DNA of 64,000 bases from an uncultured delta proteobacterium (GTDB lineage: Bacteria > Desulfobacterota > Desulfobacteria > Desulfobacterales > JAFDCJ01), in assembly GCA_963769935.1 (NCBI GenBank), contig CAVYNY010000035.1, forward strand, positions 64,001 to 128,000. The letters run 5' to 3'. A program made the position numbers and the translations under genes. The notes beneath the pieces are model-generated. The model made no database searches, had not been told where the DNA came from, and worked only from the letters and a program-made list of their open reading frames with translations. Below are positions 40,848 to 57,498 of the stretch, in pieces; within the stretch, counting starts at the first letter, position 1; every line of letters starts with the position of its first letter.

Positions 40848-40877
40848 CGTAGACCACAAAAAAAAGGAGGTTTCAAA

Positions 40878-41336: not shown

Positions 41337-41491
41337 AAATTTGCACAGCGCCATAATTAATTCTGCATTCGCCCTTTTGGGATGATATTTAAACTGCAGG
41401 ATCTGGTCAGATAGGCATTACGCTGTGTATGTATGTCTACAAAATGGTTTATAACGTATTGTACAGTTCAATACAAAGGAGGAAAATAGCA

Positions 41492-41902
41492 ATGGCTGAC
41501 ACGGAAAGCAAAGAACTTCGAGTTCGAGAAAAACAAGAGGTAGCCGGTCCGGCCGAGCAAACCACGCCGGGATTGGTTTTCACACCAGCGGTCGATATAT
41601 TTGAGACGGAAAGAGAGATTACCCTGCTGGCCGATATGCCGGGGGTCAAGGCCGATGATTTGACTATAGATCTTCGTGACAACACCCTCACCCTGACAGG
41701 GGATGTTCCGTCCGCCCAGGGCGCTGGGGAAGAAGCAATATTGACTGAGTACGATTTCGGAAGATATTACCGCCAGTTTACGATCGGTGAAATAGTCAAC
41801 CAGGAAAAAATTGATGCGCAGCTCAAGGAAGGCGTGCTTCGTCTATCGCTGCCAAAGGTTGAAAAGGCAACCCCCAAAAAGATTTCCGTCAAAGCGGGTT
41901 GA
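41492..41902 (+). CDS. Hsp20/alpha-crystallin small heat shock protein (second)
   Basis: PAVDIFET, ADMPGV, YYRQF and A.LKEGVL.L.LPK. Confidence 0.95.
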   Translation: MADTESKELRVREKQEVAGPAEQTTPGLVFTPAVDIFETEREITLLADMPGVKADDLTIDLRDNTLTLTGDVPSAQGAGEEAILTEYDFGRYYRQFTIGEIVNQEKIDAQLKEGVLRLSLPKVEKATPKKISVKAG

Positions 41903-42276: not shown

Positions 42277-42294
42277 TGTATATACATCTATAAC
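42277..42294. promoter_or_regulatory. Candidate GntR/HutC-type operator (autoregulatory)
   Basis: TGTATATACATCTATAAC, with a 17/18 identical copy at 43305-43322. Confidence 0.65.
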
Positions 42295-42425
42295 GTCTAA
42301 CCGGAATGGTCGCTGCATCGATTTGACGGATTTTTTGCATTTGCTGAATTCCGGTGGGGCGCAGGACAATCAACCATTCACTGTGAATGACGGCGCCTTT
42401 TGGCAATCAAAAGGGGAGATTACCC

Positions 42426-43250
42426 TTGAAAATTGTTGACGAATCCAATCCGATCCCCAAATATCTTCAAATCAGTGCCTGGCTGAAGGAACTGATCCAG
42501 ACCGGCCGCTATGCCGCCGGTGAAAGATTGCCTTCCGAAATCGAGCTTTCCAAAACGTGCGGCGTCAACCGCAATACCCTGCGCCAGGCCATCACCGAAT
42601 TAACCACGGCTGGGTTGCTGCGCAAAGAGAAGGGAACCGGAACCTTTGTCAGCAGTCCTTCAGCTGCCGGACTAAAACACAAACTGGAGCGGATTTCAAG
42701 CTTCAGGGATATGCTGGGGCAAAGCGGCATTGCCGCCCGAACCGAAGTCATCGGCCGGCGGATTGTAGATGCCGATGATTATGTGGCTAGAAGCCTGTTT
42801 CTGGGCACCAATAAAAAGGTACTGGTCGTCAGACGGGTTCGTGCCGGCAACGGTACGCCTTACATTTACGAGGAGAGCTACCTGCCGGCGGACATGTTTG
42901 AAGGCATTCTTGATTTGGATCTGACCGGCTCCATGTATGATATCATTTCCGAACACTTCGGCATTGTGCTGGCCCGGAGCAAACAGAATATCAGCGCCGT
43001 GAACCTTATTCCGAAGATCGCCAAAATACTCAAGGTCCCGGTCAATTCGGCCGCCATTTTTGCGGAAAGCATCACTTTTGATGCCAAGAGCATCCCCATC
43101 GAATTGTTATACTCGTATTACCGGGGGGACAAATATACGCTTGAGATCGAGCTCGGACGCTATCACGCCAATCCGGGCAGCATGAATATTAGAGCAGAAC
43201 AGACGGGTGGTTCCTCTGCATACGATTTGAAATTCAGCGGCGTCGCCTAA
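42426..43250 (+). CDS. GntR family transcriptional regulator, HutC/UTRA subfamily
   Basis: PKYLQI, LPSE.EL...GVNRNTLRQA..L...G....KG.GTFV, followed by a UTRA domain (SMY.., YRGDKY). TTG start after AAGGGGAG. Confidence 0.93.
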   Translation: MKIVDESNPIPKYLQISAWLKELIQTGRYAAGERLPSEIELSKTCGVNRNTLRQAITELTTAGLLRKEKGTGTFVSSPSAAGLKHKLERISSFRDMLGQSGIAARTEVIGRRIVDADDYVARSLFLGTNKKVLVVRRVRAGNGTPYIYEESYLPADMFEGILDLDLTGSMYDIISEHFGIVLARSKQNISAVNLIPKIAKILKVPVNSAAIFAESITFDAKSIPIELLYSYYRGDKYTLEIELGRYHANPGSMNIRAEQTGGSSAYDLKFSGVA

Positions 43251-43304
43251 CTGAAAATGAACCATTTTTGAATAAAAATGTAATCTTTTCATTTAACAAT
43301 TAAC

Positions 43305-43322
43305 TGTTTATACATCTATAAC
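43305..43322. promoter_or_regulatory. Second copy of the GntR-type operator, upstream of the transaldolase-like gene
   Basis: TGTTTATACATCTATAAC. Confidence 0.65.
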
Positions 43323-43349
43323 CGTTCCCAAAAAAAAGGAGGATTTACA

Positions 43350-44561
43350 ATGGAAGAAAGAAACTTTTTCGAAAGGCTGGTGGATGTTAGCCCGGGCATG
43401 GAGATCTGGTGGGATTCCTCGCCCGTCGTTTTCGAAAATTGGTGCAAGAAATTGCTTGAAAAAGCGGCGCCTGCTGATCGCGGGATATTGCAAAAGCAAT
43501 TCAACCGGATGTACAGCAAAGATAATCCCAAAAGCCAATTGTTTCGCGGCGTGACCACCAATCCGCCTCTATCCCTGCAAGCGATCCAGAATGATCCCCC
43601 TTACTGGCAAAAAGTGGCCAAGGATATTGTGGCAGCGAATCCGGGCCTGGACAAAGAGGGGCTTTTCTGGAAGCTTTACAAGACGGTCGTCAAGCGCGGC
43701 TCGGATATGTACCTGCCGCTTTTTGAAGCCAGCAATTACAAAGAAGGCTTTCTGTCCGGCCAGGTGGATCCGCGCAGCGTGTTTGATAAGGATGCCATGA
43801 TCAGACAGGCCGAGGAGATCGCGACCATCAACCCCAATGTCATGGTAAAGGTTCCCGGAACAAAGCAGGGCTACGAGGTCATCGAGTATCTGACATCCAA
43901 GGGGATTTCAACCAACAATACCCTGACCTTTATTCTGCCCCAGTTGATCGATTGTGCCAACAGCGTCAAGCGCGGCCTTGAAACCGCCCGGAAAAACGGC
44001 GTCAACCTGAGCAAATGGCGGTCGGTTATCACCCATATGGAAGGCCGATTCGGCAACCTGGGCGGCTTAAAGGACTTTGCCGCTGAAAAGGGTGTCGAAC
44101 TTTCCGACGGCGAGATCCGGCTGGCGGAACTGGCGATTTTCAAAAAGGCTTACAAATATCTGATTGAAAACAATTTGCCGAGCAAGATGCTCTCCTGTTC
44201 TTTGATCGCCGGGCCGACCGTTAACGGCCAAAGCCGCATCTGGCATCTGGAAGAAAAAGCGGGCGCCAATGTGGTCGTGACCTGCCCGCCTTCTTTCATA
44301 GAAAAGGTCCTTTTTCTGCCGGGTGTTGAAAAAATTACCTTTGAAAAAGATCGCATCCTGCAGGACATTCCCAAGGATGTGATGGATAAACTCATGCGGG
44401 TTCCTTATTTTGAAAGAGGTTACGCCGTCGACGGCTACACCCGGGATGAATACAACACCCATCCGTCGCTGCAAAAAACTGCCGAACAATTCTCCAAGGC
44501 AACCTGGGAAATGGTGGATTTCGCCGGCCGGTGCCTGGAAGGTGGCGCTTGTTTTACCTGA
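43350..44561 (+). CDS. Transaldolase/FSA-fold protein, divergent
   Basis: WWDS, GVTTNPPL, SGQVDPR, NVMVKVPGT (Schiff-base Lys) and NNTL.F in 403 aa. Confidence 0.85.
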   Translation: MEERNFFERLVDVSPGMEIWWDSSPVVFENWCKKLLEKAAPADRGILQKQFNRMYSKDNPKSQLFRGVTTNPPLSLQAIQNDPPYWQKVAKDIVAANPGLDKEGLFWKLYKTVVKRGSDMYLPLFEASNYKEGFLSGQVDPRSVFDKDAMIRQAEEIATINPNVMVKVPGTKQGYEVIEYLTSKGISTNNTLTFILPQLIDCANSVKRGLETARKNGVNLSKWRSVITHMEGRFGNLGGLKDFAAEKGVELSDGEIRLAELAIFKKAYKYLIENNLPSKMLSCSLIAGPTVNGQSRIWHLEEKAGANVVVTCPPSFIEKVLFLPGVEKITFEKDRILQDIPKDVMDKLMRVPYFERGYAVDGYTRDEYNTHPSLQKTAEQFSKATWEMVDFAGRCLEGGACFT

Positions 44562-44679
44562 AGCCATTAATACACCGGCGGCCAAGGCTGACCAGCGGTT
44601 TTCCTGCCCCGGGCGGTAATGTTCGGAATCTAAATATGACGCTGTATACAATTGGTTATTGATCAGAAAGGGAAAGAAC

Positions 44680-45792
44680 ATGATCGTTGGTATTCCTAAG
44701 GAAATCAAGGCGGACGAGAATCGGGTGGCATTGACTCCGGGCGGTGTTGAAGTCATGTGTCAACACGGCCACACGGTGCTGATGCAAAAAACGGCCGGCC
44801 GGGCCAGCGGATTCGGCAATGCGCTTTACAAACAGGCCGGTGCTGAGATCGTGGACAAATCCGAGGAAATATTCAAACGTTCCGAGATGATTCTGCGCGT
44901 CAAGGAACCGCAGCCCTCCGAGTTTGGATACCTCAGAAAAGGCCAGATCTATTTCGGCTACCTGCACCTGGCGGCATCGCCAACCGTTGCGCAGGCCATG
45001 GTCAAAAGCGGCACGGTCGGCATTGCCTACGAGACGATTCAAAAGGCCGACGGCACCCTGCCGCTGCTCACCCCGATGAGTGAAGTGGCCGGCCCCATGG
45101 CGGTTCAGGAAGGCGCCAAGTATCTTGAAATGGCGCAGGGCGGCCACGGCATCCTGCTCGGCGGCGTGCCCGGCGTGGATCCGGGCACTGTGCTGATTAT
45201 CGGCGGCGGGGCGGTCGGCATCAATGCCGCGAAAATGGCCGGCGGATTGGGAGCCAGGGTGTATATTCTCGACGTCGATCTGGATCGCCTGCGCTATCTG
45301 AGCGATGTCATGCCCGGCAACTGTGTTACCTTGATGTCCAATCCGGCGAACATCCGGGAAATCCTCCCCAAAGCAGATCTTGTCATCGGGGCGGTGCTGG
45401 TTCCCGGCAGCAAAACGCCGACGCTGGTCACCCGGGATATGCTCGGTATGATGAAGAAAGGTTCGGTGCTGGTCGATGTCGCCATTGATCAGGGCGGGTG
45501 CTTTGAGACTTCCCGTGAGACCACCCATGCCAAACCAACTTATGAGGTCGACGGGATTATTCATTATGCCGTCAGCAACATGCCGGGGGCGCTGCCTCGA
45601 ACTTCTACCCTGGCACTGAATAATTCCACGCTGCCGTATGCCGTTGAAATTGCCGACAAGGGTTGGAAGAAAGCCATGCGGGAAAATCTTGAAATTAAGG
45701 CCGGGGCCAACGTGGTGCGCGGCAAGGTAACCTACAAAGGCGTTGCTGACACATTCGGCATCGAACACACGGCTGTTGATAAGCTGTTGTAA
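44680..45792 (+). CDS. ald: Alanine dehydrogenase (paralogue 1)
   Basis: GIPKEIK..ENRV, VKEP, YLHLAA, AYETI, PMSEVAG, DVAIDQGG and NMPG. Confidence 0.93.
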   Translation: MIVGIPKEIKADENRVALTPGGVEVMCQHGHTVLMQKTAGRASGFGNALYKQAGAEIVDKSEEIFKRSEMILRVKEPQPSEFGYLRKGQIYFGYLHLAASPTVAQAMVKSGTVGIAYETIQKADGTLPLLTPMSEVAGPMAVQEGAKYLEMAQGGHGILLGGVPGVDPGTVLIIGGGAVGINAAKMAGGLGARVYILDVDLDRLRYLSDVMPGNCVTLMSNPANIREILPKADLVIGAVLVPGSKTPTLVTRDMLGMMKKGSVLVDVAIDQGGCFETSRETTHAKPTYEVDGIIHYAVSNMPGALPRTSTLALNNSTLPYAVEIADKGWKKAMRENLEIKAGANVVRGKVTYKGVADTFGIEHTAVDKLL

Positions 45793-45850
45793 ACTGTTCT
45801 TTTCAGGCATTTAGCCATTCAACTTAATTCAGGCACATAAGGAGCTTACT

Positions 45851-46963
45851 ATGATTGTTGGGGTATTAAAGGAAATCAAGACGGAAGAAAATCGGGTGAG
45901 CATGACCCCTGCCGGGGTGGAGATCTTAAAACAAAACGGTCATACGGTCCTGGTGGAAAAGAATGCCGGCAAGGGCAGCGGATTTAACAACAAAACATAT
46001 GCGGATGCGGGCGCCGAGATTGTTGACATACCCGCGGAGATCTTCAAGCGTGCCAAGATGGTGATGCACGTCAAGGAACCCCTGCCGGCCGAATATGATC
46101 TCATTCGCAAAGATCAGATTATCTTTACTTATCTGCACCTGGCGGCGGCCGAGGAGTTGACCAGGGTTTTGATCAAGAGCGGCTCCATCAATATCGCCTA
46201 CGAGACGATTCAAAAATTGGATCGGTCTTTACCGCTGCTGACTCCCATGAGTGAAGTGGCCGGACGCATGGCGATTCAGCAGGGCGCCAAATATCTTGAA
46301 ATGGCCCAGGGCGGCCACGGTATATTGCTGGGCGGCGTGCCCGGTGTGGACCCGGGCACGGTCGTCATTATCGGCGGCGGCATTGTCGGCGTCAACGCCG
46401 CTAAAATGGCCTGCGGTCTGGGTGCCAAGGTGTACCTTCTCGACATGAACCTGGAACGGCTGCGCTATCTCAGTGATGTGATGCCCAGCAACTGCTTTTT
46501 GCTGATGTCCAAGCCGACAACCGTCCGCCGCCTCATCAAAGAGGCCGACGTCGTCGTTGGGGCCGTGCTGATCCCGGGCGCCAAGGCACCCAAACTGGTG
46601 ACGCGCGAAATGCTGAAAACCATGAAGAAAGGGGCGGTGCTGGTGGATGTGGCCATTGATCAGGGCGGGTGCTTTGAAACCTCGAAGGCGACCACCCATG
46701 GCGATCCGATATACAAAGTCGAAGGGGTCGTGCACTATTGCGTAGCGAATATGCCCGGCGCGGTTCCCAAGACCTCCACGCTGGCCCTGACCAATGCAAC
46801 GCTGCCCTATGCGGTTGAAATTGCAAATAAAGGCTGGAAAAAAGCCATGCAGGAAAACCCCGAAATCAGGTGCGGTGCCAATGTGATTCAAGGCAAGGTC
46901 ACCTATAAGGGGGTCGCGGAGGCTTTTGGACTGAAACTCACGCCGATTGATAGTTTGCTGTAA
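45851..46963 (+). CDS. ald: Alanine dehydrogenase (paralogue 2)
   Basis: Same motifs as paralogue 1, with canonical FTYLHLAA, MSEVAGRM and HYCVANMPG. Confidence 0.95.
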   Translation: MIVGVLKEIKTEENRVSMTPAGVEILKQNGHTVLVEKNAGKGSGFNNKTYADAGAEIVDIPAEIFKRAKMVMHVKEPLPAEYDLIRKDQIIFTYLHLAAAEELTRVLIKSGSINIAYETIQKLDRSLPLLTPMSEVAGRMAIQQGAKYLEMAQGGHGILLGGVPGVDPGTVVIIGGGIVGVNAAKMACGLGAKVYLLDMNLERLRYLSDVMPSNCFLLMSKPTTVRRLIKEADVVVGAVLIPGAKAPKLVTREMLKTMKKGAVLVDVAIDQGGCFETSKATTHGDPIYKVEGVVHYCVANMPGAVPKTSTLALTNATLPYAVEIANKGWKKAMQENPEIRCGANVIQGKVTYKGVAEAFGLKLTPIDSLL

Positions 46964-47004
46964 TTGGAAAAATTTTTGAATTAATATTTAATAAGGAGAA
47001 AAAC

Positions 47005-48096
47005 ATGAAAAAAGATTTAAAGGATTTGTTTGTTCCTTGGCTTTTTAAGGCCAGAGAGTACAACGTCGGCATTCTGGATAAGGCGATGGTCAACCCCGGT
47101 CATGCCCGCCTGATGCTCAATGAAAATCCCATGCAGCCATCGGAAAAGGTCATTGCAGCGGTGGCGGATTCCCTGAGGCACGGCAACTGGTACCCGGACA
47201 GTTTTCTGCGGTTGAGGACCAAAATCGGAAAAATGTATGGCCTGGGTCCGGATAATGTTGCTCTGGCCAACGGATCTTCGGATACCATCGACGCCATGAT
47301 GCGCGTTTTTCTGCAACCGGGTGATGAGTTTCTGCTGTCCACGCCGACCTTCGAGTTGTTTCCGCCCCGCGCCGAACTTTGCAATGCCAAGGTAGTTCAG
47401 GTTCCGGTCAGGAAAGATACTTTGAATTACGATGTGGATGGCATGCTGAAGGCCATCAATGACCGTACCAAGCTGATCCTGATTATTAATCCCAACAACC
47501 CCACCGGCCTCTATATCGATGATGATGATCTGATTCGATTCTGCGAAACGGGTATTCCCCTATGCGTGGATGAAGCCTATCTGGATTACAACCCCCAAAA
47601 GACATCCAAAGTATCCCTGCTCGAAAAATATCCGCAGGTGTTTCTGTCGGTTACCTTTTCCAAAGCCTATGGATTTGCGGGTATCCGATTCGGATTCGTG
47701 CTGGGCACCGAAGAGATGATTACCGCTTTCAATCGGATGTTTCTGCCCTGGAACGTGAGCCGGATGGCTGGGGCGGCCGCCGAAGCCATCATCGACAATC
47801 CGGACGAGGTCAAGGCGAAGGTCGAACACAACAACAAGTGGATGGCCGTGTTTGCGAAAGAGCTTAAAAATTTGGGGCTTAAACCTTTTCCGGCCAACGG
47901 CAATTACATGCTTATCGATGCCACCATGACCGGCAAAACCACCGAGGAGATTCTCCAAGCCGGCCTCGAGAATCGCATCTACCTGAAAAAGATCGGTGTC
48001 ATCCACGGCAAGACCGGTTATTTCAGGGTAACGCCCGGTTTGGATGAAGAAAACGAACGGTTCCTAAAATTTATCCGATCCTATTTCGGCAAATAG
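47005..48096 (+). CDS. Class I/II PLP aminotransferase, HisC/CobD-like
   Basis: NENP, NGS, NPNNPTG, VDEAY and TFSKAYGFAGIRFG. Not in a his or cob context. Confidence 0.88.
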   Translation: MKKDLKDLFVPWLFKAREYNVGILDKAMVNPGHARLMLNENPMQPSEKVIAAVADSLRHGNWYPDSFLRLRTKIGKMYGLGPDNVALANGSSDTIDAMMRVFLQPGDEFLLSTPTFELFPPRAELCNAKVVQVPVRKDTLNYDVDGMLKAINDRTKLILIINPNNPTGLYIDDDDLIRFCETGIPLCVDEAYLDYNPQKTSKVSLLEKYPQVFLSVTFSKAYGFAGIRFGFVLGTEEMITAFNRMFLPWNVSRMAGAAAEAIIDNPDEVKAKVEHNNKWMAVFAKELKNLGLKPFPANGNYMLIDATMTGKTTEEILQAGLENRIYLKKIGVIHGKTGYFRVTPGLDEENERFLKFIRSYFGK

Positions 48097-48097
48097 A

Positions 48098-48269
48098 TAG
48101 TGGTTGAACGAAAACCCGTCCAGCTCAGGTGTTGGGTTTCGCCCTCGGGCATCCATCTCAGCGTAAAAGCTTGATTTTCGTAGGTTGGGTTGAGGGACGA
48201 AACCCAATCCCGCCTGCGGCGGGACTCAACCCAACCTACCCGCAATCAGGACTTTTCGTTCAGGCACTA
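48098..48269. mobile_element. Repeat family D copy 2 (MITE-like, REP doublet core)
   Basis: TAGTGGTTGAACGAAAA ... TTTTCGTTCAGGCACTA ends, with inner GTAGGTTGGGTTGAG ... CTCAACCCAACCTAC. Confidence 0.8.
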
Positions 48270-48525
48270 GCGATATCTATCGGCGTAATAATATGTATAA
48301 AAACTGAATATTTCCCCCTAGGAGCGATTTTAATTGAATTAAGTCTTGCAGTTAAAACCGCTCCTATAGTATGGGGGCAATGTTTTTTGTTAATTCCGTT
48401 TGGCTCCATTCCAAAAAATTCAAATCGTCTCGTTGTTTTGAGTTATCGCGAGATCTTCAAAGTTAACCATGAACCATTTCTTTCAAACATAAAAAACCTG
48501 GTTACTTTGTTTCAGGAAATTGGAT

Positions 48526-49296
48526 ATGAAGATCTATGTCTGTGTTAAGCATGTCCCCGATACAGCGGCCAAAATTACCGTGGTCGGGGAGACCGGTTTT
48601 GCGGAAACCTGCAAGTTCATTGTCAATCCTTATGACGAATACAGCCTGGAAGAGGCTGTTCAGATAAACGGCCGGGCCGGCCGGGGCGAGGTGGTGGTGG
48701 TGACCGTCGGCAAGGAATCCGCCGTTACGACGCTGCGCTCGGCGCTGGCGCTGGGGGCTGATCGCGGGATTCTGGTCAAAACGGAAGCCCAGTTTCTGGA
48801 CAGTGCTCTCACCGGCCGGGCATTAAAAAAGGCCATTGAGCAGGACGGGGTTCCGGATCTGATTTTTTGCGGCAAGCAGTCCATCGACAGTGAAGGCATG
48901 CAAACCCTGTTTCGGCTGGCAAAAGCTTTTGACATGCCGGCGGTCAGCGAAGTTGTCGCTCTAAGCCTAAATGACGGGGTGGCCAGGGTCGAGCGTGAAA
49001 TCGGCGGCGGTGCCCGCGAGGTGCTGGAAATGCCGCTGCCCTGCGTTATCGGTGCGACCAGAGGATTAAATGAGCCGCATTATCCGAAGCTGCCGGATAT
49101 CATGAAAGCCAAGAAAAAAGAGATCAAACAGATCGACATCGCTGAGCTTGGTTTGGATCTCACGGCGCCTCAAACTGAAATCATCCATCTTGAAGCCGTT
49201 GCCGAAAGAGGGCAGGCCCGGATGATGGCAGGGTCCACCCGCGAGATGGTGGAGGAGTTGGTCAGGATTCTGAAAGAGGAGGAGAAGGTGATCTGA
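48526..49296 (+). CDS. etfB: Electron transfer flavoprotein beta subunit
   Basis: VCVKHVPD, NPYDEY.LEEA, ALALGAD and GKQSID. Confidence 0.95.
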   Translation: MKIYVCVKHVPDTAAKITVVGETGFAETCKFIVNPYDEYSLEEAVQINGRAGRGEVVVVTVGKESAVTTLRSALALGADRGILVKTEAQFLDSALTGRALKKAIEQDGVPDLIFCGKQSIDSEGMQTLFRLAKAFDMPAVSEVVALSLNDGVARVEREIGGGAREVLEMPLPCVIGATRGLNEPHYPKLPDIMKAKKKEIKQIDIAELGLDLTAPQTEIIHLEAVAERGQARMMAGSTREMVEELVRILKEEEKVI

Positions 49297-49410
49297 ACGG
49301 AATGGCGAATGACGAATGACTAATATCGAATGTGACGAAAAGGGTTTCCGGTTTTAATAGCACCGAATCAAGCGTCATTTAAAAGTTTGAAGCATAGGAG
49401 AGAATATAAG

Positions 49411-50370
49411 ATGGCAAACATCGGCGTCTGGATTGAAACCAGTAATGGAGGTGTTAAGGAGGCAAATTTCGGGGTGTTGACCGCCGCCCGGCGCCAGGAG
49501 GGAGCTGCGATTTATGCCTTTATAATAAATGCCAAGGCCGGCGAATGCAAAAGCGTCCTGCAGTCATATGGTGCACAGAAAATCGTAGAGATAGCTGTGG
49601 AAGGTGGTGATCCGGCCGCCGATCCCGAACTGGATGCATACGCATTAGCAGAGGCCATCCATCACTTTGAGATATCGGCATTGCTGGGGCTCGGCAGTGC
49701 CAGAGGGCGTGATCTGCTGGCCAGAACGGCGGCCTTGATGGATGCGCCCCTGATACAGGATTGTATCGGGGTTGATCCGGCGGCCAAGACCGTGGTCAAA
49801 TCTCATTTTTCCGGCAAAACCCTGGCAACGATCCGGTTCAACTCAAATCCATACCTGTGCGGCCTGCGGCCCAACGCCATCGAACCGCAGACCGCGCCCT
49901 GCGAAGCGGAGGTGCTCAATTTTGCTGCGTCCGGGCATTCTGCCGCAAAATTGACGGTTAAAGAAATTAAACAGAGCCCGTCAAAGGCGGTGGATTTGAC
50001 CGAGGCCAATATCATCATTACCGGCGGCCGCCCGATCGCTTCGGCAGACAACTACAAAATCCTGCGGGAATGTGCCGCAGTTCTCGGAGCGGCAGTCGGT
50101 GCATCCCGGGCGGCCGTGGACGCCGGCTATGCCCCGCACAGTATGCAGGTGGGACAAACCGGTAAAACCGTCAGTCCTAAACTCTACATCGGGTGTGGGC
50201 TTTCCGGGTCGGTCCAGCATTTTGCAGGCATGAAAACTTCCAAAGTCATCGTCGCGATCAACACCGACAAAGACGCCCCGATTTTCGGCAAATGCGATTA
50301 CGGCATCGAGGGGGATCTGTTCGAGGTGGTGCCGGTGTTGACGGCGGTGCTTAAGGAGCAAATGGGTTAG
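49411..50370 (+). CDS. etfA: Electron transfer flavoprotein alpha subunit
   Basis: [27 protein letters not shown] and SGSVQH. Confidence 0.95.
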
Positions 50371-50403
50371 GTTGATGCTGGATGCTGGATGATGGATAAT
50401 CAA

Positions 50404-50582
50404 GTGGTTTCAGGTGTCAGCAAGGGCTAAAGGATAAAGGTCAAAGGCGAAAGGTTAAAGGCGAAAGGCTGCCGGCGAGTGGTAAAAGGAATGGACAAAG
50501 ATCCGAGGTTTTGCTTTCCAGCCTCTAAACCTCAAATCTCTTTCTTCTGTCCTCTGGCCTCTGTCTTCTGACACCTGACATC
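50404..50582. repeat. Heptamer-built inverted repeat (TCAGGTGTCAG ... CTGACACCTGA)
   Basis: Outer inverted pair encloses AAAGGC/AAAGGT-type and CCTCTG-type short repeats. Confidence 0.6.
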
Positions 50583-50602
50583 AATATTATAGCGATTAAC
50601 TC

Positions 50603-52609
50603 ATGAGCACATATTTCTGGATAAAATCGGTTTTAGTCGCAATTGCGATTGTGGCGGCGTTCAGTCTGTTTTTCACCAGGGTTCAAAGACTCTTCGCCCT
50701 GATGCGTGGGGTGCAGGGCAATGCTGCCTTTAAGCTGGATCGAATCGGCGAGCGGGTTAAGGCACTGTTTACCGATGTGCTCGGACAGCGCAATGTCAGG
50801 CGCAAACGCTGGCCGGGACTCGCCCACACGGTGATTTTTTTCGGATTTTTGGCGGTACAGCCGCACTCCCTGGAACTGATGATTCGCGGGATCTTTCCCT
50901 CCTTTCATGTGGGGGATGTGATTCCCCGTCTTTACGGCCTCTATTTTTTCACGGCCGATATCCTGGCTTTCCTGGTTCTGTTCGGCCTGGGATATGCGCT
51001 CTATCGGCGCTTGGTTGTCAAGCCCAAGTATCTGACCGACGGCCTCGATGCCCGGCTGATCATTGTATTCACCGCGGTTATAATTCTTACCTTTCACATT
51101 ACAAATGCCTTTCTGCTCATACCCTCGATCGGCGGCACCAGTTTTGATTATGCCCGCTATCTTACGGTTTCCAAGGTGGTGTACAAGGCCTTTCATCTGA
51201 ATGCCCTTTCGGCCGGCGCCGCTCGAACCGGCTTCGAAATTTTTTACTGGATCCATATCCTGACGATTCTCGGATTTTTAGTCTATATCCCCGGCTCCAA
51301 GCACTTGCACCTGCTGGCGGCAGTTCCCAACGTTTTTTTAAAGCCGCTGGACCGGCCCAAAGCCATGTTTAAAACCGATATCGAAAACGAAGAAGCCGAG
51401 AGTTTCGGCCTGGGAAACGTCTCGGCGTTGACCTGGAAAAATGTGCTGGATCTGTATGCCTGCACCGAATGCGGGCGCTGTGAGGAACAGTGCCCGGCGG
51501 ATATGACCGGCAAACCGCTGTCGCCCAAACGGGTGATTCACGATGCAAAAATCGATCTTTTCGATCAGGCAGCGGCTGTTCTGGCCTCAGACAATGCAGC
51601 GGCGGCGCCCCTGCTGCGGGAAAATTCTCCGATCACCGCCGAAGTCCTGTGGTCGTGTACGACCTGCCGGGCCTGTGAGGACATCTGCCCGGTCAATATC
51701 CAACATCTGGATATACTCCTTGAAGCCCGCAAATACCAGGTGCTGATGGAATCCAGCTTTCCGCCCGAAATGCAGGATACCTTCAATAATCTCGAAAACC
51801 AGTCCAATCCCTGGGGTTTCGGCAGCGACACGCGGGCGGATTGGGCCAAAGATCTGGATGTTCCTCTGATGACCGACAATCCGGAAGCGGATATTTTATA
51901 CTTTGTCGGCTGTGCGGGATCCTTTGACGACCGGGGGAAAAAGGTCGCCCGGGCCCTGGCCCGGGTTCTCAATAAGGCCGGCATAAACTTTGCCATTCTG
52001 GGGGAAGAGGAGCGCTGCAACGGCGATGTCGCCCGCCGGGCCGGCAATGAGTACCTGGCCCAGATGATGATGGCCGGGAATGCGGCGATTTTCAATCAGT
52101 ATCAGCCCAAAAAGATTCTGGCCGCCTGTCCCCACTGTTTTAACACCTTAAAAAATGAATACTCCCAGTTCGGCGTCCGCATTCCGGTGGTTCATCATAC
52201 CGAATTCTTACTGGAATTGATCAACCAGGGGCGATTGAAGACCAATGGAACTGAAATCCAAAAGCTGACATATCACGACTCCTGCTACCTGGGACGCTGG
52301 AACGGCATTTTTGAAGCGCCGCGCAACCTTCTGCTTGCAGTCAACAACGGCAAGAGTCTGTTTGAAATGAAGCGCATTGAAGATCAGGGACTTTGCTGCG
52401 GCGCCGGCGGTGCCCGGATGTTCATGGAAGAAACCATCGGCAAACGCATTAATCATGAGCGCGCCGAAGAAGTGATCGCAACGGGGGCGACTCAGGTTGC
52501 AGCGGCCTGCCCGTTTTGCATCACCATGCTGTCCGACGGTATCCGGGACAAGGGCGGCACTGTGCAGGTAAAAGATATTGCTGAAATCGTCGACGAAGCC
52601 ACGGATTAA
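50603..52609 (+). CDS. Membrane-bound Fe-S oxidoreductase (HdrF/FadF-like; probable ETF:quinone oxidoreductase)
   Basis: N-terminal TM domain with His residues (SKHLH), CTECGRC...CP, CTTCRAC...CP and two CCG-type domains (ACPHC, HDSCYLGR, CCGAGG, ACPFC). Adjacent to etfBA. Confidence 0.9.
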   Translation: MSTYFWIKSVLVAIAIVAAFSLFFTRVQRLFALMRGVQGNAAFKLDRIGERVKALFTDVLGQRNVRRKRWPGLAHTVIFFGFLAVQPHSLELMIRGIFPSFHVGDVIPRLYGLYFFTADILAFLVLFGLGYALYRRLVVKPKYLTDGLDARLIIVFTAVIILTFHITNAFLLIPSIGGTSFDYARYLTVSKVVYKAFHLNALSAGAARTGFEIFYWIHILTILGFLVYIPGSKHLHLLAAVPNVFLKPLDRPKAMFKTDIENEEAESFGLGNVSALTWKNVLDLYACTECGRCEEQCPADMTGKPLSPKRVIHDAKIDLFDQAAAVLASDNAAAAPLLRENSPITAEVLWSCTTCRACEDICPVNIQHLDILLEARKYQVLMESSFPPEMQDTFNNLENQSNPWGFGSDTRADWAKDLDVPLMTDNPEADILYFVGCAGSFDDRGKKVARALARVLNKAGINFAILGEEERCNGDVARRAGNEYLAQMMMAGNAAIFNQYQPKKILAACPHCFNTLKNEYSQFGVRIPVVHHTEFLLELINQGRLKTNGTEIQKLTYHDSCYLGRWNGIFEAPRNLLLAVNNGKSLFEMKRIEDQGLCCGAGGARMFMEETIGKRINHERAEEVIATGATQVAAACPFCITMLSDGIRDKGGTVQVKDIAEIVDEATD

Positions 52610-52680
52610 ACGTCGACCAGGGAGCAGCGGGTTGATATGGAAATATTTATTGCTTATAAAGGGCTTGCCATTGAAGTTGC

Positions 52681-52760
52681 GGAGTAGTGGAGTACTGGAG
52701 TGTTGGAATGTTGGAAATGATCCTCACCATTACTCCAATTCTCCATTACTCCATCACTCC
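52681..52760. repeat. Repeat family E copy 2
   Basis: GGAGTAGTGGAGTACTGGAGTGTTGG ... CCATTACTCCATCACTCC. Confidence 0.75.
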
Positions 52761-52826
52761 GGTTTCTTAAGATTCCGGATTTTTTCTGTCACATCCAAAT
52801 TTATACTAAATTAAGGAGATGGTCTC

Positions 52827-55250
52827 ATGCAAGACAGCACCCGGGTCGTAATTATCGGCGGCGGCATTATCGGCTGCAGCACGGCCTATCATCTGACCCA
52901 GATGGGCTGGCAGGATGTCGTCATCCTTGAAAAAGGCGAGTTGACCAGCGGATCGACCTGGCATGCGGCCGGCCTGGTGGGGCAACTGCGATCGGAGCGC
53001 AATATTACCCGCATGCTGCAGTACAGCGTCAGCCTTTATGATAAACTGGAAGCGGAAACCGGTCTGGCAACCGGCTGGAAAATGAGCGGCTGCCTGCATC
53101 TGGCCGGCACGCGGGAGCGAATGTACGAACTGCAAAAAGGCGCCACCACCGCGCGCAGCTTCGGACTTGAGATGAACATGATCACCCCCGAGGAAGCTTA
53201 CGACCTCTGCCCGATTATTTCCCTGGACGGCATTATCGGGGCGGCCTTTATGCCCACCGACGGGCAGGCCGACCCCGCCGGTATCACCCAGGCCCTTGCC
53301 AAAGGCGCCCGCAGCCGCGGGGCGGCAATTTACGAGCATACATTGGTTACCGGTTTTGAATTCAACAAAAAGCGGGTGTCTTCCGTGAAAACCGACAAGG
53401 GCGATATCCGGTGTGAGATCGTGGTCAATTGCACCGGAATGTGGGGCCATCAGCTTGGGCAGATGCTGGGCGTCAATACGCCGGTGGTACCCTTTCAGCA
53501 CCAGTACCTGGTTACGGAGCAGATTGAAGGGCTGTCGCCGAACTTGCCCACCATCCGCGACAAGGACAGCCTGATTTACTACAAGGAGGAAGTCGGCGGT
53601 CTGGTGATGGGCGGCTACGAGCGCAACGGCATTGCCTGGGGGATCGACGGGGTCGCCAATGACTTCAATTCGCAGCTGCTGGAACCGAACTTCGATCATT
53701 TTCAGCAGCTCTCGGATCCGGCCATGCAGCGGACGCCGTGCCTGGCGCAAGCCGGGATTGCCAGACTGGTAAACGGCCCGGAAGGCTTTACCCCGGACGG
53801 CGATGCCATCCTGGGTCCGGCGCCGGAACTGGACAATGTGTTTGTGGCCGTGGGGTTTAATGCCTTCGGAATCGCCGCCGGCGGCGGCGCCGGCCGTATG
53901 ATGGCCGAGTGGATTATCGAGGGCGAGCCGAGCCTGAATATCTGGCCGCTGGATATTCGCCGCTTCGGACCGCACCACCGCAGCCGGGCCTACAATGTTG
54001 CCAGAACCGGAGAGCTTTACGGCAAGCATTACACCATCCACTGGCCCCATGAGGAACATGACGCCGCCCGCGGGGTAAGACGCAGTCCGCTATATTTCCC
54101 CTTGAAAGAAAAGGGTGCGGTATACGGCGCCAAATACGGCTGGGAACGTGCCAACTGGTTTGCTCCGCCGGGTGTGGCACCCCAGGATGATCATACTTTT
54201 GAAATTCCCAACTGGTTTGACCATGTGGCCGCCGAGCATAAAAATGCCCGGGAAAACGTGGTGCTGGTCGATCAATCCTCCTTCAGCAAGTTCGAAGTGG
54301 AAGGCCCCGGTGCATTGGCTTTTTTGAATAGACTATGCGCCAACCAGATCGATAAACCTGTCGGCAAGGTTGTCTACAGCCAGATGTGCAACGCCAGGGG
54401 TACTATCGAGGTCGACTTAACCATCGGGCGGCTGGACCAGGACCGCTTTTTGCTGGTTGTGGGCACCGCCTTTGGATTGCGCGCTTTCGGGTGGCTAAAA
54501 AATCACCTGCCGTCCGACGGTTCGGTGGCAGTCAAGGAGATGACATCGGCCTACGCGGTCATTAATGTCATCGGCCCAAAATCAAGAAAACTGCTGCAGA
54601 AATTGACATCGGCCGACTTAAGCAATGAAGGCTTTGCCTTCGGTACCTGCAAAATATTTGCCGTCGGGTATGCTCCGGTCATGGCGTATCGCGTCACCTA
54701 CGTCGGGGAGCTGGGATATGAGCTTTACATACCGGCCGAATTTGCCGTCCAGGTCTATGAGTCTCTCTGGGAGGCCGGTCAGGATCTCGGCATCAAAAAC
54801 GCGGGTTATCGTACCATCGCCTCCCTGCATCTGGAAAAAGGCTACGCCGACTGGGGGTCGGAGCTAACTCCGGAGTATACCCCCTTCGATGCGGGCCTTG
54901 GGTTCTGTGTGGCGCTTGAAAAAGACGATTTTATCGGCAAACAAGCGCTGGCGAAGATCAAAACCGAAGGACCCAAATTGAGGCTTTGCACGTTTACCCT
55001 GGAGACCGGCCGGCCGTTGATGCTCCATGGCAGTGCGCCGATTATTTATAATGGCAAAGTTCTGGGTGTTGTAACCAGTTCCGGGTACGGCCATACCGTT
55101 AAGAAAAACATTTGCTATGGTTATATTGCTGTGGCAGATATGCGGCGGGATGAAGATTACGCGATTGAAGCTTTTCAGCAGGTGTATAAGGCCAGACTGG
55201 AACCCAGCCGGGTCCTGTATGATCCGGAAAGAAAGAAGATCCTGATGTAA
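52827..55250 (+). CDS. GcvT-family FAD-dependent oxidoreductase (dimethylglycine/sarcosine dehydrogenase-like)
   Basis: IIGGGIIG, SGSTWHAAG, FTPDG, GWERANWF, YVGELGYE, LEKGY and YDP in 807 aa. Confidence 0.93.
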   Translation: MQDSTRVVIIGGGIIGCSTAYHLTQMGWQDVVILEKGELTSGSTWHAAGLVGQLRSERNITRMLQYSVSLYDKLEAETGLATGWKMSGCLHLAGTRERMYELQKGATTARSFGLEMNMITPEEAYDLCPIISLDGIIGAAFMPTDGQADPAGITQALAKGARSRGAAIYEHTLVTGFEFNKKRVSSVKTDKGDIRCEIVVNCTGMWGHQLGQMLGVNTPVVPFQHQYLVTEQIEGLSPNLPTIRDKDSLIYYKEEVGGLVMGGYERNGIAWGIDGVANDFNSQLLEPNFDHFQQLSDPAMQRTPCLAQAGIARLVNGPEGFTPDGDAILGPAPELDNVFVAVGFNAFGIAAGGGAGRMMAEWIIEGEPSLNIWPLDIRRFGPHHRSRAYNVARTGELYGKHYTIHWPHEEHDAARGVRRSPLYFPLKEKGAVYGAKYGWERANWFAPPGVAPQDDHTFEIPNWFDHVAAEHKNARENVVLVDQSSFSKFEVEGPGALAFLNRLCANQIDKPVGKVVYSQMCNARGTIEVDLTIGRLDQDRFLLVVGTAFGLRAFGWLKNHLPSDGSVAVKEMTSAYAVINVIGPKSRKLLQKLTSADLSNEGFAFGTCKIFAVGYAPVMAYRVTYVGELGYELYIPAEFAVQVYESLWEAGQDLGIKNAGYRTIASLHLEKGYADWGSELTPEYTPFDAGLGFCVALEKDDFIGKQALAKIKTEGPKLRLCTFTLETGRPLMLHGSAPIIYNGKVLGVVTSSGYGHTVKKNICYGYIAVADMRRDEDYAIEAFQQVYKARLEPSRVLYDPERKKILM

Positions 55251-55377
55251 TCCGATTGCTTTAAATTGCAGTTGGAAGTTATTTGTTATTTGTAGAATAG
55301 AGATAGGATTTGTTAAGTATATGATCAATATTATCATGACAAAGCCTGAAATGGGTCCTGTGAAAGGAGAATAAAGG

Positions 55378-57404
55378 ATGAAAAAAGGTTCAGCGACAAA
55401 AAAGACCGGCCTCGATGCCCTTTGTATCAACACGATTAGAACCCTGGCAATGGATGCGGTGCAGGCGGCCAACTCCGGCCACCCGGGAGCACCCATGGGG
55501 CTGGCTCCCGCCGCCTATGTGTTGTGGACCCGGGTAATGAAGCACAATCCTGAAAATCCGGCCTGGGTCGATCGTGATCGTTTTGTGCTCTCGGCGGGCC
55601 ACGCCTCCATGCTGCTCTATAGCCTGCTCTTTCTGACCGGCTATGACGTCAGCCTGGATGAGATCAAAAATTTTCGCCAGTGGGGCAGCAAAACACCCGG
55701 CCATCCGGAATACGGTCATACACCGGGCGTTGAGACCACCACCGGTCCCCTGGGACAGGGGTTTTCCAATGCGGTGGGCATGGCCATGGCGGAGAGCCAT
55801 CTGGCGGCGAAATTCAATCGCGGCAGCCAGCAAGATCGTCGACCACTACACCTATATCATTTGCGGTGACGGCGACTTGATGGAAGGCATTAGTTCGGAA
55901 GCGGCATCCCTGGCGGGACATCTCGGACTGGGCAAGCTGATCTGCATCTACGATGACAACAAGATCTCCATCGAGGGCGGGACCGATCTGGCGTTTACCG
56001 AGGATGTCGCGGCTCGTTTCCAGGCCTACAACTGGCATGTCGTGCGGGTCAACGACGGCAACGATATTGCAGCCATCGAGCAGGCGCTCAAAGAGGCCCG
56101 GGCGGAAGCGGCGAAGCCGTCGCTGATCGTAACGCGCACCCACATCGCTTACGGCAGCCCCAACAAGCAGGATTCCCACGATGCCCACGGCGCGCCGCTG
56201 GGCGAGGAAGAAGTGCGCCTGACCAAAGAAAATCTCGGCTGGCCGGCCGATAAGACATTTTACGTTCCGGCAGCAGGCGCTCAAAGCATTTCGCAAATGC
56301 GCTCGACAAAGGCCGCAAGGCCGAGGCCGCCTGGCAAAAAAAGTTTACGGCCTATGCCGCTAAGCATCCCGCGGCAGCCGAAGAATGGCAGGCGGCCATA
56401 GCCAACAAGCTGGTCAAGGGATGGGATGCCGCGAGTGCCGAATTTTGAGGACGGCAAGCCGATTGCCACGCGGGCTGCTTCGGGCAAGGTGCTCAACGCC
56501 CTGGCAGAAAAACTGCCCACCCTGATCGGCGGGTCGGCCGATCTGGCGCCTTCCAACAACACCCTGCTTAAATCGTCATTCGATTTTCAGAAGGGCTCCT
56601 ACGATGGGCGCAATATTCATTTCGGTGTGCGGGAGCATGCCATGGGGGCGATACTTTCCGGCCTGGCGCTTCACAAAGGCGTTCGCCCTTACGGCGGAAC
56701 GTTTCTGGTGTTTTCCGACTACTGCCGGCCGGCCATCCGTCTGGCGTCGCTGATGAAGCTGCCGGTCATCTACGTCTTTACCCATGACAGTGTCGCCTTG
56801 GGCGAAGACGGCCCGACGCATCAACCGGTGGAGCATCTGGCGGCCTTGAGGGCCATTCCCGGGTTGACGGTTATTCGGCCGGCGGATGCCACCGAAACCG
56901 CGGCGGCCTGGCGGGTGGCCCTTAAAACCCCCAATGCGCCGGTGGCCCTGATCCTAACCCGTCAGAACCTGCCGGTGCTTGACCGGAAACTGTATCCCTC
57001 GGCGAGCGCTCTGGCCAAGGGCGGATATGTCCTGGCGGATTCAAAGGGCACGCCGGATGTGATCCTGATCGGCAGCGGTTCGGAGGTGCATCTGTGCCTG
57101 GAAGCCCAGGGGCTTTTGGCCAAACAGGGTGTGGCCGCCAGGGTGGTGAGCCTGCCCAGCTGGGAACTATTTGAAAAGGCGTCCCAAAGCTACCGGGACA
57201 AAGTGCTGCCCCCGTCGGTGACCGTCAGGGTAGCGGTTGAAGCCGGAGCCGGCTTTGGCTGGGAGCGATATGTCGGCCGCAAGGGAGGCGATCATCGGGA
57301 TCAACCGCTTCGGTGCCTCGGCCCCCGGCGGGACCGTCATGGAAAAATACGGCATGAAGGCTTCGGCGGTTGTTTCCAAAGCCATGAGTCTATTGAAGGG
57401 CTGA
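55378..57404 (+). CDS. tkt: Transketolase, with several frameshifts (near 55831, 56268-56305, 56433, 57284)
   Basis: [51 protein letters not shown]...GEDGPTHQP and FGASAP occur across successive frames. Confidence 0.93.
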
Positions 57405-57466: not shown

Positions 57467-57498
57467 AAAAGCCGGCGCCTTGTGCGTGCCGGCTTTTT
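57467..57498 (+). terminator. Rho-independent terminator
   Basis: AAAA-GCCGGCGC-loop-GTGCCGGC-TTTTT downstream of tkt. Confidence 0.75.

Follow-up and report, generated by a model that had tools for sequence, protein, structure and literature searches.

A conserved gene cluster in an uncultured member of the Desulfobacterales and a proposed anaerobic route for ethanolamine and its N-methylated forms through phosphorylated intermediates

We analysed a cluster of genes from an uncultured delta proteobacterium that lies within positions 64,001-128,000 of contig CAVYNY010000035.1 (assembly GCA_963769935.1); this stretch of 64,000 bases is referred to as the window, and positions are counted from its first base unless a contig or locus is named. 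The genome comprises 8.0 Mb in 41 contigs, with an estimated completeness of 96.7% and a contamination of 5.4%. Between 42387 and 57497 the plus strand of the window carries, one after the other, the genes for a GntR-type regulator (gntR), an aldolase-like protein, two alanine dehydrogenases (ald), an aminotransferase, both subunits of an electron-transfer flavoprotein or ETF (etfB and etfA), an Fe-S protein, a flavoprotein and a transketolase (tkt), and the row is closed by a terminator (Table 1). This row is far from a chance arrangement; it is real and strongly conserved. We consider it somewhat better than an even bet that the cluster forms the core of an anaerobic catabolism of ethanolamine and its N-methylated forms, in relatives also of choline, that would proceed via phosphorylated intermediates. 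An initial annotation, made from the sequence alone, had listed the genes from the GntR/UTRA regulator to tkt and the terminator, and every one of them was recovered on the plus strand, with tkt distributed over several reading frames instead of one.

The proposed route would start with the uptake of ethanolamine, or of mono- or dimethyl-ethanolamine, by an EtoX-type transporter of the TRAP (tripartite ATP-independent periplasmic) class, followed by phosphorylation by a kinase of the choline/ethanolamine family. One possible source of the dimethylethanolamine is the dimethylaminoethanol excreted by organisms with a choline demethylation system of the Mth type, which is compared with the cluster below. 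The flavoprotein, which resembles dimethylglycine dehydrogenase (DMGDH), would then oxidatively N-demethylate methyl- or dimethyl-ethanolamine phosphate, substrates that resemble dimethylglycine with phosphate replacing the carboxylate. The one-carbon unit would pass to tetrahydrofolate, and the electrons would flow from the flavoprotein through EtfAB and the membrane Fe-S oxidoreductase to the (mena)quinone pool. In the third step, the HisC-like aminotransferase would convert phosphoethanolamine and pyruvate to glycolaldehyde 2-phosphate and alanine, with the two alanine dehydrogenases regenerating pyruvate and releasing ammonium and NADH. The aldolase-like enzyme would add a dihydroxyacetone unit, probably taken from fructose 6-phosphate, to the glycolaldehyde phosphate, which, given the stereochemistry of transaldolase, would yield D-xylulose 5-phosphate. 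Transketolase and the non-oxidative pentose-phosphate pathway (with RpiB encoded in some loci) would lead on to fructose 6-phosphate and triose phosphate; in net terms, three C2 phosphates would give two triose phosphates and phosphate. Such an order of steps would explain why the kinase, the HisC-type enzyme and both sugar-phosphate transferases travel together, and it makes dihydroxyacetone phosphate, the product expected from serinol, unlikely. We infer the substrate specificities, the electron path, the operators and the effector from the gene content, linkage, co-occurrence, protein families and active-site residues that were observed.

The conservation of the row was surveyed by a scan with the aldolase-like protein, with one genome per species, which returned 199 relatives; the best 80 loci, 67-87% identical in this protein, were examined. 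Gene counts per locus were made by tblastn, and they are lower bounds because many of the loci are short contigs. The aminotransferase was found in 58 of the 80 loci, at least one ald in 46, a transketolase of some form in 34, etf in 15 and the flavoprotein in 12, while an orthologue of the regulator lies directly upstream of the aldolase-like gene in 44. Among the loci of at least 15 kb (n = 42), 31 possess the aminotransferase, and the 11 without it are ten Paracoccaceae loci and L082. The complete order aldolase-like, ald, ald, aminotransferase, etfB, etfA, Fe-S, flavoprotein is repeated in L028, L058, L079 and L101, and locus L014 shows the same order up to the Fe-S gene, where the available flank stops; the Fe-S gene thus follows etfBA in all five. 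Elsewhere (L010, L016, L022 and L066) the flavoprotein gene comes directly after the aminotransferase gene.

A reverse scan with the flavoprotein added 79 new loci, of which 33 are at least 15 kb long. Pathway genes, meaning one or more of tal, at, chk, aphK, mttB, dctP and TKL634, are present in 27 of these 33 and missing from six (L093, L123, L150, L159, L162 and L170). Even flavoprotein copies that are only 53-54% identical, from Syntrophorhabdus, Syntrophaceae and Thermodesulfobacteriota metagenome-assembled genomes (L153, L154, L155, L157 and L158), still adjoin genes for the regulator, the aminotransferase and the aldolase-like protein, and four of these five loci also have ald, which was not detected in L155. 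The persistence of this linkage shows that both halves of the row belong together over a long evolutionary distance. The earlier proposal that the genes make up one functional unit, for which a check of synteny had been recommended, is thus borne out in Desulfobacterales, Syntrophales-like, Thermodesulfobacteriota and Actinomycetota loci.

All open reading frames (ORFs) of the 80 loci were clustered and representatives scanned with Pfam, and five recurring layouts emerged. Layout A, to which optional genes are given here in round brackets, reads (dctM-dctQ-dctP, choline/ethanolamine kinase) gntR (APH-type kinase, short MttB) aldolase-like in its 5' part and continues with ald, ald, aminotransferase (etfBA, Fe-S) flavoprotein and tkt. 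Layout B begins with dctMQP, the kinase and a divergent transketolase-like protein of 634 residues, continues with gntR, aldolase-like, ald and aminotransferase, and has 3' of these the genes for a class IV aminotransferase, an alanine racemase, a PGA_cap protein, an Asp/Glu-racemase-like and a D-Ala-D-Ala-ligase-like protein, often with etfBA. Layout C, found in Actinomycetota, consists of aldolase-like, aminotransferase, tkt and a DeoR regulator, and layout D (L074 and L075) of a HAD hydrolase, aldolase-like, aminotransferase, RpiB and a split transketolase. In layout E, that of the Paracoccaceae, the aldolase-like protein is present and the aminotransferase absent.

Table 1. Positions of the genes and other elements of the cluster in the window.
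Feature	Position	Strand	Basis and remarks
Candidate operator before gntR	42277-42294		Perfect 10-base palindrome TGTATATACA; overlaps the shared 14-mer
GntR + UTRA regulator (HutC subfamily)	42387-43250	+	Pfam UTRA 8.7e-34, GntR 1e-17
Second candidate operator	43305-43322		TGTTTATACA and the same 14-mer; ends 28 bases 5' of the aldolase-like gene
Atypical transaldolase/FSA-fold (TAL_FSA) protein, 403 aa	43350-44561	+	Pfam match limited to profile positions 17-238 of 285 (E 5.8e-30)
Alanine dehydrogenase 1	44659-45792	+	TIGR00518; probable true start is the ATG at 44680
Alanine dehydrogenase 2	45851-46963	+	TIGR00518
HisC-like class I/II pyridoxal phosphate (PLP) aminotransferase	47005-48096	+	TIGR01141, near cut-off
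Small repeat element	48180-48245 (core of 48130-48266)		15-base perfect inverted ends; 16-base end 6 times in the genome
etfB	48520-49296	+	Family match; probable start is the ATG at 48526
etfA	49387-50370	+	Family match
Membrane Fe-S oxidoreductase, 668 aa	50603-52609	+	CCG (2 stretches) and Fer4_8 domains
DMGDH-type flavoprotein, 807 aa	52827-55250	+	DAO-FAO_M-GCV_T-GCV_T_C architecture
Transketolase, frame-disrupted	55378-57404	+	Family match and comparison with an intact orthologue
Intrinsic terminator-like hairpin	57467-57497	+	12-pair stem and T-run; closes the row

The nature of the substrate is suggested by uptake and activation genes that accompany the cluster. In 10-11 of the 80 aldolase-like loci a TRAP transporter and kinase unit directly adjoins it, and the genome studied here has a corresponding dctP-dctQ-dctM-kinase operon on another contig (C2), with the kinase at its end as the genome's single orthologue (67% identity to the copy in L030). 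The TRAP binding protein of this operon matches PDB 4UAB/4XF5 over residues 30-349 (E = 5.6e-145, 486 bits), and the next-best solved protein reaches only E = 2e-19. The kinase falls in the Choline_kinase/APH family (E = 4.9e-31), and its best PDB matches are 3DXQ and the pneumococcal choline kinase LicA (4R77). Among 151 genomes of the order, which are kin and not independent samples, 22 have the aldolase-like gene and 20 the kinase; the two occur together in 16, often on separate contigs. Csal_0678 was reportedly described as an ethanolamine TRAP transporter by Vetting et al. in 2015, and 4XF5 is reported to hold the same protein with an alaninol ligand. According to the CqsR paper (PMC12410723), 4UAB represents Csal_0678 of Chromohalobacter salexigens crystallised with ethanolamine, and for EtoX of Phaeobacter Westermann et al. 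2023 (PMC10132767) give a Kd of 7.9 uM for ethanolamine and report that phosphoethanolamine and phosphocholine are not bound.

The match to 4UAB thus connects the operon with the EtoXVW/Csal_0678 transporter system (PMC10132767), which differs in being accompanied by a gamma-glutamylase, dehydrogenases and an amidohydrolase where a kinase is found here. Since the transporter is paired with a kinase and not with genes for gamma-glutamylation, the downstream chemistry is expected to be different. Moreover, the ethanolamine ammonia-lyase (Eut) and ethanolamine-phosphate phospho-lyase routes use the same substrate, and the latter likewise starts with a kinase. However, EutB (PF06751) has no match in this 96.7% complete genome, while a control E. 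coli genome gives one, and in the proposed route the carbon would stay in sugar phosphate instead of being released as acetaldehyde.

A further connection with choline and its derivatives is provided by methyltransferase-type genes in the related loci. An APH-fold kinase and a short MttB protein (about 425 residues) are encoded between gntR and the aldolase-like gene in L021, L022, L058 and L066, as identified with Pfam. The same pair is situated by the flavoprotein gene in L094, L095, L101, L112 and L134 (Pfam) and in L106, L107, L113, L118 and L127 (tblastn); in addition, L112 has a corrinoid protein, a pterin-binding methyltransferase and an MtmB-like protein, and L134 an OpuAC-type importer. 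NCBIfam contains no specific model for the APH kinase or the short MttB, the best ones being homoserine kinase and TIGR02369, far below cut-off. From family, pairing and taxon, we infer that these pairs are probably of the Mth type. Jiang et al. 2025 (PMC12155760) showed for Eubacterium limosum that choline is phosphorylated by MthK and that MthB, a member of the MttB family, demethylates phosphocholine and not choline, giving dimethylaminoethanol phosphate; they also noted that homologous MthK/MthB pairs are co-localised in delta-proteobacteria and marine sediments. This choline:tetrahydrofolate methyltransferase system (MthK/MthB/MthC/MthA) resembles the proposed route in that phosphorylation comes first and N-demethylation takes place on the phosphate ester, and also by the kinase and short MttB pairs that many related loci have within the cluster or next to it. 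It differs in that it removes one methyl group, ends at excreted dimethylaminoethanol and includes no flavoprotein, aminotransferase or aldolase, and in that its pair is missing from this window and genome.

A locus with such a pair, L134 (7536-18096), combines a class III aminotransferase, a DeoR regulator, the flavoprotein orthologue, the OpuAC-type ATP-binding cassette (ABC) importer, the APH kinase and the short MttB, with neither the aldolase-like nor the HisC-like gene within 10 kb. Its class III aminotransferase might represent an alternative end of the pathway of the phospho-lyase type.

These findings bear on the interpretation given in the initial annotation, of which the pathway logic was retained and the substrate class was not. 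It had assumed that sugar carbon is rearranged, that an aminotransferase and Ald form a deamination relay and that N-alkyl oxidation is coupled to respiratory electron disposal. Transaldolase- and transketolase-type enzymes are indeed part of the conserved unit, the aminotransferase and the Ald pair fit such a relay, and a DMGDH-type flavoprotein beside ETF and a membrane Fe-S protein fits N-demethylation with respiratory disposal. The substrate had been sought among N-methylated amino-polyols, amino sugars and sugar-amino acid conjugates, whereas the uptake and activation genes, that is the binding protein matching 4UAB, the choline/ethanolamine-family kinase and the APH-kinase and short MttB pairs, point to a phosphorylated C2 amino alcohol. 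The sugar-rearranging enzymes are accordingly proposed to act on the deaminated product and not on a sugar backbone of the substrate.

The flavoprotein is colinear with rat DMGDH (residues 3-804 with 22-830, E = 9.3e-164) and likewise with the human enzyme, and a STWHAAGL stretch, which presumably serves covalent FAD binding, is shared. In the Fe-S protein encoded beside etfBA, the N-terminal part (residues 7-227) includes four hydrophobic segments, and the protein has two CCG domains as well as 4Fe-4S dicluster motifs. Judging from these features it is likely the link between ETF and quinone, and it resembles ETF-linked membrane Fe-S oxidoreductases of the EtfD/DgcB type. The arrangement is similar to the DMGDH, ETF and ETF:quinone oxidoreductase of the mitochondrial choline-to-glycine route and to the DgcAB-EtfAB module of Pseudomonas in its four-domain flavoprotein with folate-binding domains and its adjacent EtfBA, with a membrane Fe-S/CCG protein as probable quinone link. 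However, the substrates proposed here carry a phosphate ester where dimethylglycine carries a carboxylate, and the genes to which the orthologue group is linked are those of the kinase, the aminotransferase and the aldolase and not those of glycine metabolism. We therefore propose the flavoprotein as a putative N-demethylase of mono- and dimethyl-ethanolamine phosphate; its genomic context argues for a substrate other than dimethylglycine.

The flavoprotein, ETF and Fe-S genes could instead be an ordinary dimethylglycine/sarcosine dehydrogenase module of glycine-betaine catabolism that stands beside an unrelated module by chance. True dimethylglycine dehydrogenases are the best solved relatives of the flavoprotein, the six full-length MttB-family genes of this genome could supply dimethylglycine, and the two halves of the row are separated by a gap of 424 bases with a hairpin and have no clear operator before etfB. 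We nevertheless regard this explanation as decidedly improbable, because the linkage of the flavoprotein to the aldolase-like and aminotransferase genes is kept down to 53% identity and across changes of gene order, and pathway genes accompany it in most of the long loci. Moreover, 18 of the 151 genomes of the order have a flavoprotein orthologue (at least 66% identity), and the aldolase-like protein is present in 15 of these 18. This genome and its relatives also have separate flavoprotein paralogues, only 41-45% identical, which could serve dimethylglycine, and glycine-cleavage, serine hydroxymethyltransferase and sarcosine genes are absent from the row.

Both alanine dehydrogenases exceed the cut-off of TIGR00518 (516 and 514.5 bits versus 391.85) and are 68% identical to each other, and the second is 88-93% identical to its syntenic orthologues in the nearest loci. 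The aminotransferase, at 270.8 bits, remains slightly below the cut-off of the HisC model TIGR01141 (276.55) and is a paralogue of the true hisC, which is located on contig C22 and scores 357.5 bits. An alignment with E. coli HisC and 15 cluster orthologues (44-86% identical) shows that it keeps the PLP lysine K214 together with N157, D184, Y187, S213 and R222 in E. coli HisC numbering, as do the cluster orthologues, and that Y20, Y55 and R335 are kept as well. In all 17 cluster aminotransferases aligned, Lys, which keeps the positive charge, replaces R322 and Ser replaces D85, while the genome's own HisC has Arg and Asp; Phe stands at position Y110 in the cluster proteins and in this HisC alike. 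The substrate of HisC is a 2-amino-alkyl phosphate that bears a substituent at C2; its phosphate would be held by 322 and 335, and its imidazole contacted by 85 and Y110. If these roles are right, the aminotransferase family would bind an amine phosphate without an imidazole. The relays of taurine (Tpa/Ald) and 2-aminoethylphosphonate (PhnW) degradation are similar in having the aminotransferase by Ald, with pyruvate regenerated and ammonium released. They differ in that Tpa belongs to class III and PhnW to class V, while the enzyme found here is of the HisC type (class I/II) and Ald is duplicated.

The resemblance to these relays raises the question of a phosphonate, since an aminotransferase with Ald is the usual start of phosphonate breakdown. 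The substrate would in this case be 2-aminoethylphosphonate or its N-methyl derivatives, and the aminotransferase would form phosphonoacetaldehyde. The nearest NCBIfam models of the regulator include PhnR and PhnF, all far below cut-off and with no equivalog reaching it, and PotA/PhnT-like ABC importers and HAD hydrolases lie beside the cluster in some distant loci (L153 and L075). However, no enzyme that cleaves C-P bonds is linked to the cluster, TIGR01548 and phosphoglycolate-phosphatase-like models give the best fit for the HAD protein of L074, the cluster-linked kinases would not be needed for a phosphonate, and the aminotransferase is HisC-like and not PhnW-like class V. A phosphonate substrate therefore seems very unlikely indeed.

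The aldolase-like protein is called atypical because it scores far below every curated transaldolase model, the best in NCBIfam being NF002881 with 102 bits against a cut-off of 367. Its predicted structure (pLDDT 92.5, pTM 0.91) is a transaldolase barrel with an added helical C-terminus, and the top 37 Foldseek matches in the PDB are nearly all transaldolases (best 3r5e, E = 1.4e-16, TM 0.69/0.76). Residues were mapped by profile alignment (hhalign) to TalB and FsaA, and columns were counted over 75 family sequences. The Schiff-base lysine (TalB K132) corresponds to Lys167, the TTNP asparagine to Asn71, TalB N154 to Asn189, T156 to Thr191 and S226 of the phosphate site to Ser284, each in 75 of 75 sequences, and the phosphate-site R181 corresponds to Arg233, which is invariant in a 24-sequence alignment. 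At the place of the general acid-base E96 of TalB, which is Gln in FsaA, stands Gln138, the FSA state, and the catalytic-water position (TalB F178, FSA Tyr131) is occupied by Met230; both are found in all 75, and the flanking residues are His229 (74/75) and Glu231 (69/75). Only R228 of the phosphate site is variable (Arg in 53, Ile in 21 including the window protein and Lys in one of the 75). From alignment and model, the protein thus appears to act through a Schiff base on a phosphorylated partner, with its acid-base residues remodelled.

TalB, FSA and the TalB E96Q/F178Y variants (1onr, 4rz5, 4rz6 and 3cwn) share with it the fold, the Schiff-base lysine, the Asn, the Thr and, by alignment, the phosphate-site Arg/Ser, and FSA has in common the Gln at the Glu96 position. 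The aldolase-like protein differs from TalB and FSA by the Met at the Phe178/Tyr131 position and by being about 80 residues longer. FSA-type enzymes can accept glycolaldehyde phosphate. A canonical transaldolase is encoded separately on contig C10 of the same genome (PF00923, 242 bits). The copies in Paracoccaceae metagenome-assembled genomes (L009, L017, L024-L027, L029, L060, L061 and L069) suggest that the enzyme was recently transferred horizontally and also serves in a second physiological context. Two of these loci were scanned with Pfam, and both have xylose-isomerase-like TIM barrels (two in L024). In L009 these are accompanied by several transposase genes and by a class II aldolase, a Zn-ADH and HAD hydrolases, and in L024 by genes for a peptide-type ABC importer.

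Sugar- or polyol-type genes beside the aldolase-like protein in these two loci would be consistent with a different 2-amino alcohol (serinol, alaninol, 1-amino-2-propanol or a longer amino-polyol) that is phosphorylated and transaminated to a keto- or aldo-phosphate for the aldolase-like enzyme and transketolase. The C2 substituent on the substrate of HisC-type enzymes agrees with this, as does the alaninol reported for Csal_0678 in 4XF5, and the CqsR paper (PMC12410723) shows that ethanolamine sites can also take serinol and L-alaninol. However, the products expected from serinol phosphate and alaninol phosphate are dihydroxyacetone phosphate and acetol phosphate, respectively, and these neither require nor suit the acceptor role in a transaldolase or transketolase reaction. 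The linked kinase belongs to the choline/ethanolamine family, and the short MttB with the APH kinase, as well as the OpuAC importer of L134, point to a choline/ethanolamine skeleton. We thus consider another amino alcohol unlikely, and ethanolamine and its N-methylated forms are retained as the preferred substrates.

For the last part of the route, comparison with an intact syntenic orthologue shows that the transketolase gene of the window changes frame at least four times (near 55831, 56270, 56440 and 57287) and uses three frames. An intact transketolase gene follows directly after the flavoprotein gene in L022, L066 and L110 and lies further downstream in L101. Contigs of the public runs X1, X2 and X3 have one base fewer at 55829 and at 56271, so that the transketolase is in frame there at these points; they come from another strain, as indicated by many other differences from the window. 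Contigs of run X7 likewise have one base fewer at 55829, and those that cover 56271 are without the deletion there. Just 3' of tkt, the gene for a sigma-54 activator (PAS-GAF-AAA+) is also frame-split (57774-59426 and 59251-59625), its AAA lid and HTH_8 domain being read from the second ORF. The breaks in both genes suggest poor consensus or decay across 55.8-59.6 kb, and those of tkt may be local assembly errors or mark a strain-specific pseudogene. No intact full-length transketolase was seen in the assembly, and a split copy is located on contig C22. The Brucella pathway from erythritol to erythrose 4-phosphate and the sulfo-TAL/sulfo-TK pathways of sulfoquinovose, which also bring unusual carbon into the pentose-phosphate pathway, likewise have catabolic operons with transaldolase, transketolase or RpiB copies of their own; the difference is that the compound entering here would be an amine-derived C2 aldehyde phosphate.

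Two other transketolase-like genes were noted in the survey. Locus L091 (contig C10:598000-608000) holds the pentose-phosphate operon of this genome, with a 6PGD-like protein, a G6PD fused to a HAD domain and the canonical transaldolase, and it is preceded only by an N-terminal transketolase fragment of 176 residues. The 634-residue transketolase-like protein of layout B is encoded immediately 5' of gntR in 23 loci (for instance L043:7114-9018 and L077:6995-8899), scores 234 bits with NF004556 (cut-off 575) and is weakly similar to DXS; the pathway may thus use it as a specialised thiamine enzyme.

In a fifth element of the proposal, the GntR/UTRA regulator would repress gntR and the aldolase-ald-ald-aminotransferase genes at TGTATATACA-type operators until an effector, probably a phosphorylated one, binds. 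This palindrome lies about 100 bases 5' of gntR, with a one-mismatch copy 36 bases 5' of the aldolase-like gene. The 14-mer present at both candidate operators has exactly two occurrences in the 64 kb window, which are these, and in related loci k-mers of the motif are the commonest 10-mers in the regions 5' of the aldolase-like gene (8-11 of 63 regions). The candidate operator also appears to fit GT-N-TA-N-AC, the operator pattern of the HutC family. The UTRA fold senses phosphorylated sugars or amines in known family members, and the phosphorylated compounds of the proposed pathway would account for its presence in the regulator. Further operators before etfB, tkt and the TRAP operon were considered and rejected, as these places have only one-mismatch sites (48294, 55423 and L089 12214) at chance level. 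A scan for sigma-54 promoters gave 25 matches with 35 expected, none of them in the relevant gaps, and Rfam at its gathering threshold revealed no regulatory RNA between 41000 and 58500.

Contigs from two metatranscriptome libraries span the row from gntR to tkt, and in both libraries the part from gntR to the aminotransferase gene has roughly ten times the word depth of the part from etfB to tkt, although contig depth cannot rank genes. The gap between the aminotransferase gene and etfB holds a repeat element and a hairpin with a T-run (48360-48378). The repeat looks like a mobile element of the REP/MITE type, and a copy of 48130-48266 with about 76% similarity is found between gntR and the aldolase-like gene in one RNA-library contig of a related strain. 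An ORF of 139 codons at 48129-48548 was dropped as spurious, having neither a family match nor a counterpart in related loci.

Several observations weigh against the proposed catabolism of ethanolamine and its N-methylated forms. Homologues of the APH kinase and the short MttB above 80 bits were not found in this genome, and the flavoprotein would consequently need external mono- or dimethyl-ethanolamine. The transporter and the kinase of the choline/ethanolamine family are likewise absent from the window and are linked to the cluster by synteny in other loci and by co-occurrence, and the binding-protein family may accept other 2-amino alcohols. The canonical Glu and Phe/Tyr are missing from the aldolase-like protein, and its chemistry may consequently differ from that of both TAL and FSA. 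Moreover, its Paracoccaceae homologues, 77-85% identical, occur in ten loci of which none has the aminotransferase, which indicates that the substrate of the aldolase-like enzyme is not tied to amines. The transketolase is frame-disrupted in this assembly, and the etf-to-tkt genes are without a clear operator copy. In the literature searched we found no assay of an enzyme of the demethylation, transamination or aldolase step, and to our knowledge glycolaldehyde phosphate is not an established metabolite, glycolaldehyde 2-phosphate being known to us mainly from prebiotic chemistry and synthetic biology.

Among the parts of the route, the transporter and a first demethylation of the Mth type are already known, while for the core, formed by the steps of the flavoprotein, the aminotransferase and the aldolase-like enzyme, no description was found in the literature searched, which lay mostly outside subscription journals. 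What is proposed is thus a new variant of amine catabolism assembled from known enzyme families. A more far-reaching version of the proposal is, in our judgement, possible but short of an even chance. It would hold that sediment anaerobes fully oxidise ethanolamine and choline, head groups of membrane lipids, without ethanolamine ammonia-lyase, microcompartment or trimethylamine, working on the phosphate ester throughout (kinase, corrinoid- and flavin-dependent demethylations, transamination), that glycolaldehyde 2-phosphate is a true intermediate and that a new transaldolase subfamily converts it to xylulose 5-phosphate.

Ethanolamine and choline are among the most abundant nitrogenous products of membrane breakdown in sediments, soils and guts, and their known anaerobic degradation depends either on B12-dependent lyases housed in microcompartments or on a glycyl-radical enzyme by which trimethylamine is set free. 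If the proposal is true, sulfate-reducing and syntrophic bacteria would have a new trimethylamine-free fate for both compounds that ends in the pentose-phosphate pathway, with the invested phosphate retained in triose phosphate. It would also account for the dimethylaminoethanol (phosphate) left by the Mth system described in 2025, give physiological roles to three large subfamilies (transaldolase-like, HisC-like and DMGDH-like) and make glycolaldehyde phosphate a natural metabolite.

Some neighbouring genes were recorded in addition. Directly upstream of the cluster, the window has two tandem Hsp20 genes (40755-41902), and further upstream a 2-oxoacid:ferredoxin oxidoreductase (37017-39701) and a sugar-type ABC importer (29411-35012), for which no link to the cluster was seen. 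The downstream set of D-amino-acid genes in layout B is found, among others, in L038, L039, L043, L044, L048, L049, L071, L076, L077, L078 and L083; its class IV enzyme is of the D-amino-acid type, and an FGase-like amidohydrolase is often present too. This set could provide an alternative disposal of the alanine amino group via D-Ala/D-Glu, or it could be a separate D-amino-acid module.

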